A stretch of DNA of 64,000 nt from Rhizodiscina lignyota (lineage: Eukaryota): the NCBI GenBank assembly GCA_010015805.1, contig ML978124.1, positions 124,001 through 188,000 of the forward strand, read 5' to 3'. The number at the start of each line of letters is the position of its first letter. Positions within the stretch are counted from its first letter, which is position 1. The notes beneath the pieces were generated by a model. That model was not told the DNA's origin, did not search any database, and worked only from the letters and a program-made list of their open reading frames with translations. Below, piece by piece: positions 26,230 through 47,406 of this stretch. Position numbers and translations under genes: made by a program.

Positions 26230-28035
<1,806 letters not shown>

Positions 28036-28211
28036 AGTCGTGAGACATGGATATTAATCTGTCGTCGGCTTTCGGACGACCATACTTCTCATGGCGGCAT
28101 CGCATTTGCTCCAACTGCCGCATCGATAGTTCCTCATCTCATGACTTTCCATCCTTTCACCACTTCCTCGAGGATCCAGAGCTTTGCAGTGCACGACATC
28201 ATAGAATGTCG

Positions 28212-29066
28212 TTAGTCCGAAACAGCATCATCGTCATCCGATAAGTAAAAGTCCACTTCTCCATCCAAAGAGTTCTCGGTACGAGTGTCATCGTCTTCAC
28301 CTAGGGCAAGCGTTTTGGCATTTGCCCTCTGTGGCGCTCCAATCTTGACCACCTTCTTGATCCCACCCTGCGCCCTCTCGTACCTGTATGAGATTTTCAC
28401 CACATTGTAGCTCACAGCAAACACTTGCTCAGTAGCGACGGTTTCCGAGACGTCAACGCCGGCCTTTCTTGTTGTTTTAGGTGCTATATTCGGATTACCG
28501 AAAGCCATTGGTGCGCCTGCGATTGCAGTGACTGGAACAGTGACGTTAATCCCGACACTTCTGGCTTTGGTCATGCCTCGCGTCCACTTCGTGCCGGTGG
28601 TGGTGAGAAAGCCTGTTACAAAGTACGCGTGGTTCTTTCCGCTCCTTGCAAACAGCTTCTCCACATCCGCGGAATAGTGATCATTGCTCATCAACGTGTC
28701 GAAAACGTCGGCGGGATCGTGCCCAAGCACGTATCTTTTGACCTCGTCGCTTTCGAGTTCAACTCGGAGTTCCGTTTCTCGGCCAAGGTCCAGGCCAAAT
28801 AGATCGCTGAGGCCAACAGAAATTGAGTTTTCTCTTGCGGTTGTGAGGATACTATGTGCATCTGTGCTGATGATTGGTGCTGGAAGAAGCGTTGGAATGA
28901 TGTCTTCTGGATTGTGCTTTGGTATCAGACTGCCGGAGGTTGGAGCTAGAGGCGCAAACTGCTCGGCTGGACGTAGCTTATGAGAAACAATGCGGCCGAG
29001 CAAAGTAAGTATAGTATCGGAGGGAAGCGGTTCAGGGAGTAGGAAAAACCGGCGAGGTGAAGTCAT
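28212..29066 (-). CDS. Gasdermin-like (RCD-1/HET-Q1-type) pore-forming protein, 284 aa, intronless
   Basis: Size and ordered motifs typical of fungal gasdermins: FFLLP..LGRIV..P, a beta-rich core, AYFVTG, a Gly/Ala-rich hairpin, VFAVSY..V, then LAL-G and a 29-aa acidic tail. Adjacent to a protease gene. True start is ATG 29066 (the track extends from a GTG). Confidence 0.8.
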   Translation of the reverse strand: MTSPRRFFLLPEPLPSDTILTLLGRIVSHKLRPAEQFAPLAPTSGSLIPKHNPEDIIPTLLPAPIISTDAHSILTTARENSISVGLSDLFGLDLGRETELRVELESDEVKRYVLGHDPADVFDTLMSNDHYSADVEKLFARSGKNHAYFVTGFLTTTGTKWTRGMTKARSVGINVTVPVTAIAGAPMAFGNPNIAPKTTRKAGVDVSETVATEQVFAVSYNVVKISYRYERAQGGIKKVVKIGAPQRANAKTLALGEDDDTRTENSLDGEVDFYLSDDDDAVSD

Positions 29067-29681
29067 TTGCGTGGGCAAACAATCAAAGACGCAATATCCT
29101 ACGGCGGGCTTAAAGTGGCTCAAGAATGACTGAAGCTTGCGGATCGGCAATCTTTGCACGGGCAAGGCACCTATTCTTTGAGGAATGAATGTCAAGAACA
29201 ACGTCGGGAAGTTTCCAATTGCACGATGGTACTGCGATATGTATGCCCTTCTCTCGAGGTCTAAATAGGAGCTTCTCACCGAGGTAAGTACGCACCGATG
29301 TCTGAGCCACAACGCCACTTGAAGAGTTCAAAGCTAGGCTCAGCCGCTCAATTTAGCTTGGCCGGCAGGCAGCAGGCTCCAGCGCCCCTATCAGAACGGC
29401 GACAACCGCACTTTACCGATAGCAAGCATGCTTACGACCTGTGGAAATGGGATTTCTAAAGCCACTCTATACTCGTATCTTCTGTCGGAGCACGAATGAT
29501 CAATATGAGTTGATTGAGGAACGAAGCTCTCAAGGAGAAGTGCACGGTTATACATAATACAAGAGCGCTAAGACGCACTGATCACTTCCTGGCATCTTCA
29601 TATCGAGCTTGATAGCCTTGATTGCTCTCCACACTTTCTGTTTGACGTAGGGGCTCTCTATCTATCAACGTTCCGCTCACC

Positions 29682-32600
29682 ATGTCCTCGGCAAGTCGTA
29701 ACACAATCCAGATAATTTCGACGTCTGCCGACAAGAGCCATCAAGCGACCGAAAACTCTAACACGACCCGACGCTGTTGGTATGTGGATGTCGTTCCACC
29801 AAGTCCCGCAAAGCCTCACACTGTTCTCCTGTCCGATCCATTCAATGAAGAACAAAACTCCGAATGCTCATGGTACCTCAACAAGTATGTGCAGCACGAA
29901 CCCTTCTCCGAAAGGAGAGCAAAAGAAGCCTTGCAACAATTGAAAACATATGGTACTCGACTCATTCAAGACCTCGAACTTCGTGACGTTGTTGAAAAAC
30001 TCTCCAAGTCCGGTGAACCCATAACAATATCTGTTGCCAACAACGGTCCTTCCGAAGACAACATATATATTGCCTGTACTGGGAAATTCTCGAAGACCCC
30101 GAAGTATGGGAAGTCAATGGGCTGGAGTTGATCATCGTTCGAGACTCACAATCCGATGTGCCCGCAACAAACTCTCCGCAACTGGACCTGGTTGGACATC
30201 AAATCAATATCCTCCTCGTTCTGGCACGTGATTTGCGCAGAGAAGTCTCATTACGAGAAGAGATCAATCCACATTTGGCCTTTGGCGTCTTGTTCAGCCT
30301 GAAGAATGAACTTCGGAAGCGAAATACACCCATCCAGCTAAATATAAACATTGTTCGCCCGGGTAGCTTCGAAGCATTGGAATCACACCTCAAAGAGACC
30401 GAAAACCAACATGGAAAAGGATTTTTTCACATTGTGCATTTTGATTTACACGGAATCATATCTACAGATTCCCAAGCAAACCTTTTGTTCAATTCTTCGT
30501 CTCCAAGCGATTTCGTGACCCAACCGGAGCCTGTCGAGAAAGTTGCAGGAATTCTTCATCAGTTTGGGATCACCTCGGTGGTTCTAAATGCCTGCGACTC
30601 AGCCAACACAAGCCGGGGAGTCGAAGCAAATGCTTCAGATCAATTCATCAACCAAGGAGTGATGAACGTCCTTGCCATCTCGTTCAAAATAACTTCCACT
30701 GCTGCCGAAGTCTTTCTTCATTCATTCTATCACTCTCTCATCCTGGGTGGCCATGGATTTTACTCAGCAGCACAGCGAGGACGACGTGCTCTCCGTGCCG
30801 ACATTTGCCGGGATGCACGATTCAACCTCAAAAGAGATCTCAACGACAGCTTCGTACCAGTTACGTACACTTCCGGAAATGAATCAAAGTTCCAAATTCC
30901 AAATTCGATCACAGCGAGCGAAACCGAAGATAGTTCGATACGGACAAAGACAAAGCAGATCTGGACATCAGCGCTCGAAAGCCAGCTCCTCGCCGAAAAG
31001 CTTATTGGACGAGAGTTGGACCTGCTTCGACTTGAAAAGAAACTAATTGCGGAAAAGTGCCTACATCTCTCTGGCCGAGCTGGTGTTGGCAAGACCTCCC
31101 TCCTTATTCATGCCATTGAAATATGGATGGGTACTTCATTTTTTGAAGTTTTTGTTGGGATTACTTTTCCTCCATTGGACTTTAACAACTATAAAAGCCC
31201 AATATTCGCTTCATTTGATGACTTCCTACAAGCATATATCAACGAATTGCCACTGCAATCTGCAGACAAAGAAGAGCTTTCAAAAGAATCACCACCAATT
31301 TCGGAACCGGCACCGGTATACTTTACACGCAGGATTCACCATCTTCTCTCTACTGTTAACTCGCTTCTGGTTTTTGATAGCCTTCATACACTCTACGTCG
31401 GAATGAAAATCAGCGATGAGATTGACAAGCTGGTGTCAGATATAAATCTGTTCATGGCAACACTTTTGACATTCTCTCGAGAAGTTGCGAACGAGAAGAA
31501 ATTATACATTATTTTCTCCTCTCGATGTAACAAGGTTCTTCATCCAGAGTTGGTGAAAGGAGTCAAATGGGACTTCTCAGATGGGCAATTTGATGTCGAG
31601 AGTCTGCCATTATCGGCATCAATGCAGCTGGCTCGGTCAGCCATTTCCAACTTAGCTCCCAAATCTCCTGAGCTCGCAGATGGAGATATGGCAGAGCTTG
31701 AACTTCTTCTTGGTCTCTTGGACGGAAACCCATCTGCTATCCTGCATGTTATGCAAGGGAAATCCGCAACCCAAAGTTGGGCCGAATATCGTCGCCAAGT
31801 CCATCTTGGAATTCTTCCCCCTCTTGGTGAAGACAAAAATGAACCTGTCTATGGGGAAATCGGTCGTTTTGTTGGTCGTTTGTCCGAAGAAGTAATTTCC
31901 GGACTGATCTACTACAGTCTGTTCTGGAAAGAGGGCATGCCATTGACATCAACTATAGCAGAACTCCATCTACTTGGACTCATGTCTTTTACCGAAACAA
32001 CAGTACATTCGCTTAACTTTACAGCTGATAGGGGATTTATCGATTGGAAGCGAGCAGGGGACGATGCCGAAATACCTTGGATCCACCCGCTGATGACGCT
32101 TTGCGCCAGGTCCTACGCACAAGAATACGCCCAGAACCAAACCAATGTGGCCACCTCACCCACAGAAGTTATTTCTTCTGCTGTGCTTGCTGCCTTGGGG
32201 CAATCATACTCAATTTTGATACCAGAAGACAAAATAGTCGCCATCAACAAAGTCCCGCAGTTATTCCTTACTTCGGTTGAAAAGCATAGCATGAAGCGGT
32301 TCATTAGCGTTTACCTCAAAGGCTACAATTACAATGATGCCTTTTCAAACTGGGCGAAGGAATCTGCGAATTTAGAGACTTGTATTGCCATCTGCTTGCG
32401 AAATCCGCCTTCGTCCATCGATCAGCTGCCGCTTGATTTCTTTGGTCAATGCGTTTCTGGTATCAGAATGACTGGCTCTCCCGCTGAAATTAGCCTGTTC
32501 AGTAAACTCTTCGTCGAATTCTTCCAGCTTGTCATCTCCATCAACAAAGGCCTTGCATTCGGCCCTGATGACGATAGTCAGCGGTTCTCTTTGGTCATGT

Positions 32601-34316
32601 CAACGTGTCTCGCCGCCATGTATAACAGCGAGCTTCTGCAGAAGGAAAAGTTCAGCGAATACAGTCAACTGGCTGTTGATATCATCAGGGCGTCGGAGAA
32701 AGAGTTTGGCCCGTACCAAAACCATCGCGTTCAATACATGAAAGGCCTTGCTCTGAGGTACCGGGGAATGAGCCTAATCACAGAGGGCAAAGCAGAAGCT
32801 GCCAACGAATATTTCCAGGAGATGCTAGACTTGGAAGGCGGCCTGCTCCAGGAACCAGAAAAGTTGGCCTTTGGTTTCACGAAAGATCAAGTTGACGATG
32901 TCATTCAGAACCTGGGTCTGACGGGTGAAGAAGCAGCCACTAAAGAAGAGCAATTGAAGAACATGGCTTCCGGCTCGTACTGGACCACTTACATGAAGAG
33001 CCGACGCAACATCATGCGGGTCACGACCTTGCCAGCGATGGCGGAGAAAGAGGGAGACTCAGTTCTTTCTTCAAGGGCATTTCGGGGAATCCTTGCAAAA
33101 GCCAGTGCAGGAATGAAACAGGTGCTTGAGCAGGGAGAGGCCATGGGCATGCAGGGCATCGAGCAAGACACAAGATGGTGGCCAGAAGGGGTTGACTTGA
33201 ATTACTACGTTCGAAGACAGGCCGATACCACAGAGAAACTTCGAGCGTTCGAGGACGCAGTGAACTCTGGAGACTCCGCAAGAGTTCAAAAGCTGCAAAG
33301 CGAAATGTTTATGCAGTCTTTAAAGACGCTCGATATGGAAGGTGCTTATTCAATTCTGGCTGAAATGCACAAGTCACTGGGCACGAATGCTTCTGACAAC
33401 GCATCAATATTACCATTGAGCATGGGCAGAGATCTTATGGAAGTTGGTCAACATGCTCAAGGGAGATAAAGGAGAAGTTACGGGAGAGCAAAACCAAGAG
33501 ATCGCACAAAGCGCACTTTCAAACGCGATCGATATTGCGACAACCCGAGGCGACGATCCAAATGCAATTGAAGCTCTTAAGATTTGGAAGGAACTCCCAA
33601 GCACTAGAATGTCGGGGATACAATTTACAACTCGAGAAGTAGAGAGGGTACAGAAGTTCATGAAACTGCAACTTGAAGGGGCTTCGAGTATGCAAGTCTC
33701 GCCGAGCCGTCGAGCAGATATCCAGCTGAAACATGCCCAACTCATGATGAGCTACGAACAAGCCCTGTTTAGTGGCAATGTAGATGAGACAAGGGACTGT
33801 CTGAATGGTCTGGAAGAGTTCATTCAATTGCCTGAAACTGGTCATTATGGCGCTCTATACGATGATGAATGGTTTCACAATGCTCGTGGACGCCTGGAAA
33901 GCCTCGATCAATTTGCAGAGGCATCGATAAAGTGGAACGAGCATATGTCAGAAAACAATTTCCAGGCTGCTCTCGACATCATTTCTGAATTTGAGAAAGG
34001 GCTTGATCCGGCCATCGCAATGGACGCTAGGCTTGTTCGTTCAGAGGTCTTGGGTGAAATGGAGCTAACGGCGGTCAAGAATTGGCTTTCTATGACCCTT
34101 CAACAGCTGCCTGTCAACCCACATAAGGCTGGATATCGAAAAACTTCTGAAGATCTGGAAACCATTTCTAATTACTTGCACCAATCAGACAGAATTGCAA
34201 GTACCGAAAAGGGACGAGAACTCATAGACACTGTTGCTTCGAAATTAGCTGTGGTGAGCTTGCTGAATGACATGACTCCTGAGGAACCCGAGCCTCGAAG
34301 ATTTGTCCTAATGTAG
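29682..34316 (+). pseudogene. CHAT (caspase-like) protease + NB-ARC-like P-loop NTPase + helical/TPR-like NLR, ~1543 aa when reconstructed; two frameshifts
   Basis: LSDPF..WYL N-terminus, YWEILEDP, catalytic HFDLHG (His 30449) and VVLNAC (Cys 30593), Walker A GRAGVGKT (31073-31096), Walker B LLVFD, LDGNPSAI, WIHPL, TPR-like helices. Frame breaks at 30063-30070 and ~33440. Confidence 0.85.
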
Positions 34317-34566
34317 ACAGAATGCATTGCCGGTTTCTGTGGCGTAGAATGTCGAGTCAGCCGCAAGGAAGCGAAGCTGAGCTAGTCAAGCTTGTATATA
34401 GAGGCTGGTGTGCATACCTTTAGGAACGAGAAGTGCATTCAATCCCATTAGTGGAGATCGCAAGCTTGAGAATGAGATCCTTTCGTCATTGCAGGTACTG
34501 ACGCGATGCCATTCGACAGCATGATATATATTATAGCCAAGATCGATGGATGACCCCTCGAGGCTC

Positions 34567-35985
34567 TCACTCGATAACAATGGACTCCACCACTGCGTAG
34601 TCGATATGGTCTTTCCGCAGACCAGGAACCGGACCCAGGCACACTGCATACAGTGCGATTCGTTCAATGAATTTGTTTACGTCTAGCTGACGCATTTGAG
34701 GCCCGGTCACTCTCGAATGTGTCACTCGAGGCCTGTCGAAAAATCCTGATGTGATGTTAATAGATTCCGTTGAGCGCGCAATTGGGTCGTTTCCATTCCA
34801 TAATGCGTCTGAGGTGGTATCTTCAATATGTCTTGGCGTCATAGAGAGATATTTAGCGGGAAGTGGTAGTAGTGACTGTGCAGAGTGGACCCGCGGAATC
34901 GAAATGCCCTGCAGTTCGAGATACTCCTGCACATCCGCCGCCTCAAGCCACTCCCCTTGCAAAAGCGGCAAATCTGTAGCAAGTCTTGTCCTTGTTCGTC
35001 CATACGCAAGATTCTGTACATACGGCGGCGGAAGTCGCGGCACAAGAGCTGTATCCTGTCCTTCAATGGAACGATACATTTTCGGCAATTTGCTCATCGC
35101 AAGCGTATTGTAGAAAAAGAAGTCACCGAGGTGGCTCTTTGGAACGGATAGTGCTTCTCTCGCCATAGCTAAGCATCTCTCGAACGATTCGATATTCAAG
35201 GGAATTGTCATCGCCGGTAGAATCTTGTCCTCGGGAAGATTTTGGAAGGTATATAGACGGTATGATCGCTCAAGGCAAGCTCGAAGATATTGGTCTACAA
35301 AGCCTGCATTTTCCCTTGATGGTGCCTGAGGCCAGAGCATGAGAGGCCTCGTTGGCGCTGGAGTATGATGCACTGATTTCAAACTTCGAGGTCTTGAATG
35401 TTGGGGTTTTGCGCGCTTTGCGATCGGATTCGCGGGCTCGGTCTGACTTTCGTCTTTTTCTTTTGGGAGTGAATTATGCTCTGGTTCTCTTTCAGATTCC
35501 ACCCTGCTTGCTGGCACATCTTGTGGTGCTTGCTCTTGTCCCAAGGCATCTCGTGAGGTGGCGGCGATTTCGAGCGCCGTATTTCCGAGTTCCAGGGTGA
35601 AGCATGGCGGCAGATCTTCCGTACCCGATTTGACAACTCGCTGATGGAACCTTGTGAACGAATCAATTACTTTCCCAAGCGCCGTATTGAGATTGTCTGC
35701 TCGTGTCTTGAGCTGGGCGAGTTCATGCTCCTTCCGTTCCCGGTACGTCCGCTGAGCAATGCGCGTGCGAATTCTTCGAAGCTTCAATTTATCAGCGTAA
35801 ACCATGATCTGTAGGCATACGACTACAGCCTTTCTCCGGAAGAGACATACGGAAGATGCATCTTTCACCGTGTTGAGATCAACATCCATCCGCGGACGAC
35901 CTGAACTCCGCGGGCTCGAGCGGCTATGTCGGCCAAGCTCCTTCGTGCGGACCACTGCAGTATCTTCAACTTGTTGCTCCGACAT
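34567..35985 (-). CDS. bZIP transcription factor
   Basis: Basic region RRIRTRIAQRTYRERKE followed by a leucine heptad. In-frame 69-nt intron 35850-35782 (GTATGT..GCTGAT..AAG). Fungal bZIP-type C-terminus GEWL..DVQEYL..CLGPVPG. Confidence 0.85.
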   Translation of the reverse strand: MSEQQVEDTAVVRTKELGRHSRSSPRSSGRPRMDVDLNTVKDASSVCLFRRKAVVVCLQIMVYADKLKLRRIRTRIAQRTYRERKEHELAQLKTRADNLNTALGKVIDSFTRFHQRVVKSGTEDLPPCFTLELGNTALEIAATSRDALGQEQAPQDVPASRVESEREPEHNSLPKEKDESQTEPANPIAKRAKPQHSRPRSLKSVHHTPAPTRPLMLWPQAPSRENAGFVDQYLRACLERSYRLYTFQNLPEDKILPAMTIPLNIESFERCLAMAREALSVPKSHLGDFFFYNTLAMSKLPKMYRSIEGQDTALVPRLPPPYVQNLAYGRTRTRLATDLPLLQGEWLEAADVQEYLELQGISIPRVHSAQSLLPLPAKYLSMTPRHIEDTTSDALWNGNDPIARSTESINITSGFFDRPRVTHSRVTGPQMRQLDVNKFIERIALYAVCLGPVPGLRKDHIDYAVVESIVIE

Positions 35986-44617: not shown

Positions 44618-46593
44618 TCAATACAAGGCGACCGTAACTTCTGGAGCGCCAACATCCAAAGCCTGCCCGTCCATGACTCCATGCAAATAACAGTCACCAA
44701 TGAAGTTGTATGCCTCTGATCGACTACCTTGCTTCACATTCGTGACCGGCCGAAGAACGAACGGTATCCTTCCTCCAAGTAAAACCCAGACCTGGTCCCC
44801 GGCCTCCATCCCCGGCGGCCCAGTTCCAAATCTATCTTCCTCTGTAAGAAAAAAACAACGATTGTCCAGAGAACAACAGACGACGCCTGCAAATTCCATC
44901 TTGGTGTGATATACTGATGGATTTGGCCCTGCAACAGTTGCAGCCTGAAGCCTGAATCTCTCAAACTCTTCGTAGTCATCATCTGAAAGTCTACGGTAAT
45001 CGTTTGTGTCATACAAGTAGACGATGTCCGAAATAACCGTACGCCAGAACATGTCGTACCTGCTGTCGTATCCGGCGCCAGTTGCTTTTGTCTGACGCTT
45101 TGGCACATTTGCCATTTCAGCCAGCTCTGAGAGAGCCTTTGACGCTTCAGTCCAAGTGTCCATCCTCTTGGAGGCGCTCACATCCGTCACAACTCCAACT
45201 TTAACGCCGCTAAGATGGAAGATACCGCCGTCTTCGAAAGTTTTCTTAGCCGACGTGTTTTTGGCAGCCTGATAGCGCGGGTATTGGTATGCGAAACGGA
45301 AGTGCTGCCTACGTTGCAAGGTGATGTCCAGAGGAATGGCAAAGTTGGGAACCCAGGAGGGCAGACCGGCATGGTTCGAATTGAAACTACAGCCAAGCAT
45401 AGCGTGCAAATCTCCGTCAGAATATTCTTCAATCATCGATTGAAAAACATTTGTGTACGCCTCCCTGAGTTGTAATGAGTAGTCCGGATTGATTCCAAGA
45501 CGGTTGCCGTACGAAAATAGACCCAGCATGCCGTATACACGATCTCGAGGATCGTGGCACTCCCTTCCGACGAAGGCGATTTGAGTTGATCTAAACTTGG
45601 GTCCGGTCGCATTCGTAGGACGAGGCTTGCGGGCAAAAGAAATATTTCCAACTGCGTCGAAAAGCTGGTGGATTGCAAGATAGACTTCCCCCATGAGTTT
45701 ATTACGAGACTTGACACAGCAACCTGAAGTATTGATCTCGTGAGAAGTGGAATTTTCGTCAGCATCTACCATATCCTTCCACGGAATCGTCCAATGTCCA
45801 AATATAACGGTGGCTTCTGAGGAGAGCACAACCTCTTGAAGCGTCCAGACTCTTCTCCACCATGAGCTATTTGCGACGATACCAAAACCCTTCCAGATTG
45901 GGAGGCTCTTTAATCTCTCGACACATTCCTCATCCGTGTCATCAAATTTCGGAGAAAAGCAAGGCAGCTCGTACCAGTGCTTGTTCTGGGCAAAGTGGGA
46001 AACGAGTTCAAACGGATTCGAATTTTGGTCATCTGCGGGAGAGGAAGAGATATTCAATCAGCCCAGACGTATCAAACAAATAATTGAATGACGGTGAATC
46101 TCCATGGTATATACTTACACATCTTGAGCACATATTCATTCGGATCTCTTTGGTTTCTTTCGAAATACTCGCTCGGACAGCCCAGCCAAATATAACAATG
46201 AGTACAGCTCCTGTATATTTCTGCCATCATAGCTACTTGATGAGTTTTCTCGGCCACATCTTCCTGATTAATGCACAAAGCGTCGATCCAGAGTACAAGT
46301 GGCCGATCTATGCGGCGAATATGTCGAAGAGCCGCCTCGAGGTTCGCAGTCGCGCGACACTCGTTCGAATTGACGAAGATCGGTTTCGTTATGCTTGCAT
46401 CTCCCCAAGTATAAGAGAAAGCTTCATACTTGGGTTTTGAATCCAAAGAAACGACACGGATATCGCACTGTATGTCCTCCTCCCATCTCCCAAGGTGCAA
46501 ATTAAGAAGCCGGATATCTCTACTGCCCTTTGTGATTGGTTCCTGGTAAAAGGATACTCCAGGCTGGATTGTTTGAGAATTCACTAAAGGCAT
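44618..46593 (-). CDS. HET-domain protein (HET-6-like heterokaryon incompatibility family), 2 exons
   Basis: IRLL, YEAFSYTWG, LWIDALCINQ, QVAMMAEIY, WWRRVWTLQE, DPRDRVYGMLG, LPSWVPNF, GD.VWVLLGG..PFVLR, FIGDCYLHGVMDG. Intron 46118-46033 restores the frame. Confidence 0.93.
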
Positions 46594-47406
46594 CCTGTTC
46601 AAATAAATCTGCCAGGTTTTGGAAAAGCGAGTGGAATTTTTAGGACAGCCTTGAAAGCAGCCTCGAGAGTCCAAAGCAGTCTTGGTTTGCGTCTCCAGTC
46701 GCCCCTAGCGGAGATGGAGCTGGAACACAGGAAAAACTAAGGCCGTAAATGATTTGACGAGCATTCCGTAGCATGCTATATTAGAGGTATAGAGAAAACG
46801 TAGTTGAAGAAGAGAAGTTCTCAGCCTCGTCTTTCGTCTCTACCGCAATCCCACAGCGTGTCCCAAAGCGGTTAGCGCAAATAATCCCAAAGGCAACTGG
46901 AGGCATCCACGCCTTTCTTAGTCTCATCTCCTTCAGCTTCAATTCTTGTAGATTTAATATCGTTACACATTTCCTACCTGTGATTTCATTCTTGTAAGAA
47001 ATGCGTCGTGCCAAAGAATGAGAGGGAATTCCGGAGACAATACCGTAATGTATCTATCGAGGTTTAATCGATCTGATTAAAGCCTTGCTTCCAAGGAGCG
47101 ACAGACGAAGTTGATCAGTAGAGCTGCCCACTTTATTGATCTAAGACCTCTTAAATGGGTACTATCCTGCGATGCATCAATTCCCTTGCTTCAACCCTCG
47201 GCACCTCGGAGATTGAAGTCTAACTCCGTGACCCGTTGTTCTCGGGTCTTCCGATACACTTGATGGGATGGAGTCGGGATAAGTCAACTATCTTGATTTC
47301 AAAGATCAGTGTGGGGCATTCAAGCTCTAAAATTCCTGGAGTTCACAAAGTTTAAGGGTGTGGCTGAGCTGTAACGCCTGTGGAGATACACCAACACCAT
47401 TCCACT

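Follow-up and report, generated by a model that had tools for sequence, protein, structure and literature searches.

A twice-frameshifted CHAT protease receptor gene beside a gasdermin gene in Rhizodiscina lignyota, probably a young pseudogene

A protease receptor gene in Rhizodiscina lignyota lies head-to-head with a gasdermin gene, and its frame is broken at a run of four AT units. The locus raises the question of whether this break is a slippage on/off allele, the disarming of a costly killing module, an assembly error or the decay of one more immune gene. The stretch analysed is a 64-kb window; the genome searched comprises 33.4 Mb in 33 contigs, and copy counts from it are lower bounds. 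The lesion is real, the system is of a known kind and the explanation is ordinary: judged from its sequence, the gene is very probably a young pseudogene, from an immune family that evolves by birth and death, and not a slippage switch.

The gene was identified from its domains, its motifs and its neighbour. The middle of its three parts matched Pfam CHAT (E 4.2e-9, 36.7 bits, cut-off 24). The His-Cys motifs HFDLHG and LNAC both occur, though in a frame other than that of the start codon, and H130 and C178 were invariant in 24/24 aligned sequences. A Walker A sequence, GRAGVGKT, lies at about 31073-31096, and its G-x-x-G-x-G-K pattern was invariant in the same alignment of 24 sequences. Matches of the middle frame to NB-ARC (E 0.009), AAA_16 and nSTAND3 all fell below the Pfam cut-offs; many homologues carry NACHT, AAA_16 or NB-ARC matches. 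The C-terminal region is helical-looking by sequence. No TPR-, ANK- or WD40-type repeat family matched P0001 or P0003, and among the homologues TPR matches were confined to the distant P0030, P0032 and P0033. A PDB sequence search with the protease profile returned chance-level matches only. The start codons of the protease and gasdermin genes are 616 bp apart. The Pfam CHAT match, the invariant His, Cys and Walker A residues and the gasdermin fold of the neighbour uphold the original prediction of an NLR-like protease gene beside a gasdermin, and by these features the gene is a CHAT protease-STAND-helical receptor.

Table 1. Features of the protease-gasdermin locus, in positions of the window
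Feature	Position	Strand	Comment
Gasdermin-like gene, 284 aa, HET-Q1/RCD-1 type	28212..29066	-	open frame, pore domain conserved
112-bp solo-LTR-like insert	29483..29594	+	TG...CA ends, 5-bp target site duplication TCTTC; in the shared divergent promoter
5' part of protease-receptor gene	29682..30131	+	encodes a 149-aa peptide, TGA at 30129-30131
Middle part: CHAT core, STAND/NB-ARC-like NTPase, helical region	30062..33469	+	out of frame with the start
(AT)4 run, break 1, +2 (equivalently -1) frameshift	30063..30070	+	unchanged in the run X1 contig
Break 2: +1 or loss of 2, 5, 8... bases	33417..33466	+	annotated as an 88-nt intron, 33342-33429
3' part, about 290 aa, C-terminal helical, sensor-like	33420..34316	+	profile positions 1261-1497; frame differs from that of the middle part

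The first break lies in the sequence AAC ATA TAT ATT GCC TGT ACT GGG AAA (30060-30086), in which ATATATAT occupies 30063-30070. The frame that begins at ATG 29682 ends at the TGA after 149 amino acids, while the downstream one stays open over 30017-33469; the reading across the junction is IYCLYWEILEDPEVW. The motif at this point is I-H-x-L-x-W-E-x-L-E, of which W, E and E were invariant in 39/39 homologues. This W-E motif precedes the catalytic core, and we place it in the N-terminal half of a CHAT fold. A separate match to the 5' frame was obtained in 23/28 homologues and ended at about 29960-30070 in 22 of these. A profile scan placed the break at about 30054-30069 and scored a gain of two bases (588.7 bits) and a loss of one (588.1 bits) alike, so that duplication of one AT unit, a single slippage step, is the simplest reading, albeit unproven. 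The (AT)4 run and the frame break exist as described earlier, being read directly off the sequence and unchanged in the contig of a public run (X1). It had also been argued that re-initiation at an ATG would not rescue the protease, and this holds: the downstream frame has its first ATG at 30662, past both catalytic residues, His at 30449 and Cys at 30593.

The stop codon of the 149-aa peptide overlaps a TTG of the downstream frame (TTGA, 30128-30131), probably by chance. Stop/restart overlaps resembling TTGA occur in fungal viruses. Non-AUG re-initiation at this TTG was considered and set aside as remote, and its product would lack the N-terminal 150 residues.

The second break ends the middle frame at TAA 33467-33469, and the remaining 298 codons are in another frame. 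Deletion of one AT, proposed originally as fusing the two frames, does join the start to the downstream frame; with a further frameshift at about 33417-33466, it would still yield no full-length protein. Although the shifts add up to zero modulo 3, mutual rescue was rejected, the intervening frame having no long open stretch.

In an intact receptor of this type, the C-terminal helical region would sense a cue, the STAND ATPase would act as the switch, and the caspase-like CHAT domain would cut the inhibitory tail off the adjoining gasdermin, which would then form lethal pores. This scheme of sensing and cleavage is taken over by analogy from the accessible text of PMC8851545. At the present locus, two independent small indels, one at the (AT)4 site and one at about 33417-33466, have broken the receptor gene. 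Translation from the true ATG would give only the 149-aa peptide, which has no catalytic residues, and the gasdermin would be left without its cognate activator and is probably itself in neutral decay. The loss was proposed to be recent, and the sequence agrees. Read with X at the breaks, the gene keeps 104/114 conserved columns (0.91; homologues 0.78-0.98; paralogue C11 0.96); together with the count of two lesions and the lack of a RIP skew (TpA/ApT 0.49 against 0.64 for the window), this points to recent loss. RIP as the cause of the lesions was rejected for want of that skew. Fungal NLR genes are often pseudogenised by stops, frameshifts and transposable element insertions, sometimes strain by strain, and in seven Podospora species about 11% of NLRs are conserved throughout, where the figure for random genes is 93%, according to the part of PMC13449251 that was available.

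The genome holds at least three gasdermins and at least three CHAT loci, paired head-to-head. Paralogue C11 is a single open frame of 1605 codons across both break sites, and paralogue C6 shifts frame directly behind the catalytic Cys and is further interrupted by two TAG stops. Gasdermin frames are open in all three pairs; the protease is broken in 2/3. Metagenomes gave 80 loci, of which the 39 with broad family coverage were analysed and 41 short or partial CHAT matches, including 9 degraded-looking loci, were left out. Merging of seven near-identical pairs reduced the 39 to 32 distinct loci, many of them cut short and all on contigs of a kind that can hold errors. Protease stops or frameshifts were seen in 6/32 of these, at other positions than here. 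A head-to-head gasdermin was present in 17/32; within this group the protease was visibly broken in 2/17 and the gasdermin was open over its covered part in 17/17. At L040 a gasdermin-like remnant is itself frameshifted. The protease accounts for 4635/5490 coding bases of the pair (84%), and the expected probability that all ten lesions in the four broken pairs fall in the protease is 0.844^10 = 0.18, so the asymmetry of lesions needs no selection.

Several observations concern the relatives themselves. Two distant family members, C6 (L026:4234) and L091:521, each lack one base at a shared codon boundary behind the catalytic Cys (V/I-L-A then M-S), within matching local sequence, and L074 shifts a few codons past that site, either by coincidence or at a mutational hot spot. 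L033/L059 share 80-87% nucleotide identity with L042, L044, L048 and L056; one lineage has an in-frame stop in CHAT and the others are open, which amounts to turnover among close relatives. The degraded-looking CHAT copies kept out of the counts (L068-L070, L076, L079-L081, L092 and L101) come from related assemblies, and several share a frameshift at profile position 393/394. Elsewhere in the window, a minus-strand gene at 44618-46704 is split into two ORFs (46072-46704 and 44618-46057); it is presumably a HET-domain protein gene, and would be the second gene of non-self-recognition type in the window.

The gasdermin neighbour had been called intact, which is correct for its open frame and pore domain and less so for its C-terminal tail. 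It keeps 49/54 conserved columns. An AlphaFold model built from a 38-row alignment reached a pLDDT of 78 (32.5 when folded as a single sequence), and the Foldseek matches ranked 1-10 were all gasdermins, led by Neurospora RCD-1 (8jyz, E 5.6e-11, 16% identity). The protein had no Pfam match, and PDB searches by sequence and by profile gave chance-level hits only. After the conserved L253, its acidic tail is 32 aa long against 41-85 aa in 37 homologues, the shortest of the 38 sequences, and has no terminal hydrophobic motif of the kind found in most homologues. An inhibitory peptide of 38-43 residues is given for HET-Q1-like proteins in the available portion of PMC13475620. The short tail (28212-28310, minus strand) may reflect a premature stop or a small frameshift. 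No convincing homologue match to a lost tail was found in the three frames read past the gasdermin stop. A perfect ACTAAC overlaps the stop codon, and no plausible intron was found there.

The insert in the shared promoter ends 87 bp upstream of the protease ATG. Its family has 17 matches in the genome (L010-L025), about 103-131 bp long, and the 5-bp flanks agree within one mismatch in 7/10 other copies with both ends found. The TG...CA ends, the duplicated TCTTC and the genome copies suggest a solo LTR. A TATA-like stretch within the insert points toward the protease start. No Rfam family matched the insert, and 28000-35000 otherwise gave one chance match (E 0.81). No copy was found near the two paralogous clusters. 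This solo-LTR-like insert in the promoter and the shortest gasdermin tail among the 38 sequences are new details of the locus.

Among the alternatives to a young pseudogene, one joins several steps: a leaky CHAT receptor, an AT duplication selected as its suppressor, and an orphan gasdermin on its way to becoming a primed allorecognition factor. Although unlikely, it would make the locus an intermediate on the proposed route from immune pathway to allorecognition locus, with the intact pair of the same genome as control. Conversion to allorecognition has been proposed for het-Q and rcd-1, and is not known to have been seen for a CHAT-type pair.

Selected disarming taken by itself appears improbable. 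Here break 2 or the promoter LTR would have come first and produced a leaky or auto-active protease, and the AT duplication would have been favoured as a suppressor. Break 2 would strip the putative sensor end of about 290 aa, with protease and ATPase left whole, and a related Q2L protein has a CHAT domain that in isolation acts on its gasdermin (PMC8851545, in the text available); most of the helical region would nevertheless survive break 2. The LTR-like insert directs its TATA-like stretch at the protease start. Which event came first is not readable from a single genome. In two of the three pairs of the genome it is the protease that is broken, a bias that target size accounts for, and the lesions of relatives are scattered along the gene. 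Of the disarming of a costly module, as first suggested, the recent loss of function stands; selection may have acted, and the protease's 84% share of the coding target suffices without it.

A further and more doubtful possibility, drawn by analogy, is that the locus is an allorecognition allele, in which a haplotype with a gasdermin and a null protease would persist as one partner in a het-like incompatibility. Killing would then occur on fusion with strains whose cognate protease is active, or a primed, short-tailed gasdermin would bring it about. A 'pseudogenization model' of this kind is set out for het-Q1/het-Q2, rcd-1 and het-s in the part of PMC10197012 consulted, and the accessible text of PMC13449251 describes nwd2 decaying beside het-s. 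The conserved columns of the gasdermin and its short tail without the hydrophobic motif would also fit. An open gasdermin is nonetheless the default outcome of a small target, and in a different strain an intact, regulated receptor should need more than fusion to be triggered.

The original prediction also offered a slippage on/off allele, and a phase-variation switch at (AT)4 now seems very improbable. The break does coincide with the sole dinucleotide run of at least four units in the 4.6-kb protease gene (11 such runs lie in the window), and AT repeats mutate faster than other dinucleotides; very short repeats, on the other hand, mutate slowly (both from the available part of PMC9990875). 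The run is at chance level: the 64-kb window has 2 copies of ATATATAT, and 200 base-shuffled versions averaged 0.97. At the same motif in 21 loci and 2 paralogues, an AT run of more than one unit occurs at 0/23 sites. Break 2, 3.3 kb downstream, would still truncate the protein at 33469 with the loss of the roughly 290 C-terminal residues, and hence a change in the repeat alone restores no full gene. The stops and indels that disrupt paralogue C6 and several relatives are unrelated to this one. Run X1 gave no (AT)3 contig, although contigs drop rare variants. A literature search that took in few subscription papers and no supplements turned up nothing on this locus, nor on phase variation through repeats in an activator of fungal gasdermins.

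The deposited protein P0005 (NA57DRAFT_73836, Rhizodiscina lignyota, 1498 aa) is identical to the window over three blocks and bridges the breaks with introns at 30046-30095 and 33342-33429. The claim that no intron signals span break 1 was thus too strong, since GT..AG pairs do span it and the deposited model uses one, though the signals are poor. For both breaks to be real weak introns, with the 1498-aa spliced protein being made, is most unlikely. In favour, each site has a GT..AG pair that restores the frame, and the second annotated intron contains a CTGAC. The donors, GTCCTT and GTGCTT, lack the +5 G found in 93% of Fusarium introns (PMC5677156, text in part), and neither annotated intron follows the GTRNGY donor, CTRAY branch and YAG acceptor pattern. 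Splice sites were scored with a generic frequency matrix, which is consistent with the Fusarium frequencies in the accessible part of PMC5677156. GTCCTT..AAG scored -4.8 and GTGCTT..CAG 3.1. By comparison, the 22 intron-like junctions of 20 related loci scored 9.0-19.6, and two introns of an arylsulfatase gene in the window scored 11.2 and 9.5. Where relatives have a stop or frameshift, the best chance introns scored -5.1 to 9.2, the highest of which overlaps the lowest true intron (9.0). Other frame-restoring introns were rejected on score, the best reaching 2.0 at break 1 and 5.3 at break 2.

Intron 1 would remove the W-E-x-x-E motif that is invariant in 39/39 homologues, and intron 2 would remove a helix-like stretch kept by homologues and both paralogues. 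With a profile of 39 homologues (38 proteins and the C11 paralogue), the deposited model scored 990.7 bits, X at break 1 with intron 2 scored 1035.0 bits, and X at both breaks 1041-1054 bits, depending on the placement of the second X. The gain over the intron model at break 2 is thus just 6-19 bits, in a weakly conserved region. The relatives analysed have no intron at either break site, whereas 20 loci share one near profile position 272 and two have another at 319. The intron at about 272 lies just after the catalytic His motif in 20/39 loci (L033-L066) and is absent from the three copies in this genome. The weak signals, the conserved residues that splicing would remove and the lack of introns there in relatives argue that both breaks are frameshifts. 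The case is firm for break 1, the splice score and the invariant motif bearing out the original reading of a true frameshift, and somewhat less so for break 2, because its region is weakly conserved.

That the breaks are assembly errors in a gene intact in the organism, an option left standing earlier, is extremely improbable, since a separately assembled 56-kb contig from public run X1 (depth 157) spans 27500-35000 and both breaks with 0 other letters and 0 gaps, even if X1 is possibly the same DNA as the assembly. The proposed check of (AT)4 against (AT)3 in reads came out for (AT)4 in this contig; as X1 may be the source of this very DNA, it supports (AT)4 in the reads and does not extend to other isolates. 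No joint, indel or (AT)3 form was present at either break in the contig, and contigs drop rare variants.

The preferred reading thus remains that of a young pseudogene: the gene is most likely another broken receptor from a fast-turnover immune family, and in that respect matters little. The practical warning lies in the deposited model, which hides both frameshifts as introns: surveys of gasdermin-protease pairs that rely on annotation would score this pair as functional, when 2/3 of the CHAT-type pairs found in the genome are in fact broken.

Among known systems, the closest are the het-Q1/Q2L CHAT clusters. In the accessible text of PMC8851545 (Clave et al. 2022), 353/1884 (19%) fungal gasdermins adjoin a CHAT gene, cleavage of the linked gasdermin is shown for the CHAT domain of Q2L-6 in isolation, and co-expression of Q2L-6 and Q1-6 leads to cell death; datasets S1/S2 of that paper may already list the present locus. 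As in Podospora Q1-6/Q2L-6, the gasdermin here adjoins a long multidomain gene for a caspase-like CHAT protease: the neighbour has a gasdermin fold, the protease gene lies within 10 kb and the His-Cys dyad is present. The head-to-head layout recurs in both paralogues. Q2L-6, as described there, consists of TPR followed by CHAT, whereas here CHAT stands first, N-terminal to a STAND-like NTPase and then a helical region. Unlike Q1-6/Q2L-6, the protease gene here has two frameshifts, and cleavage is predicted from the genes.

Podospora also has pseudogenised NLRs, including nwd2 beside het-s, in which, on the available text of PMC13449251 and PMC1805685, the receptor is broken and the executioner open, as here; in contrast to those NLRs, the effector here is CHAT with gasdermin rather than amyloid with HeLo, and there is no RIP signature. 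Neurospora RCD-1 (8jyz) is the best fold match of the modelled gasdermin. RCD-1 acts by allelic heterodimerisation without proteolysis, according to the consulted part of PMC13475620, whereas the gasdermin here has an acidic tail and a linked protease, like HET-Q1. Bacterial SSR contingency loci, in the sources available in part, likewise have a frameshift within a coding dinucleotide run, but the run here has 4 units, is unconserved in relatives and is accompanied by a second, non-repeat frameshift that blocks reversion. Like a unitary pseudogene, the gene carries two disabling lesions that are absent from its homologues and from the C11 paralogue, all of them continuous at both sites.
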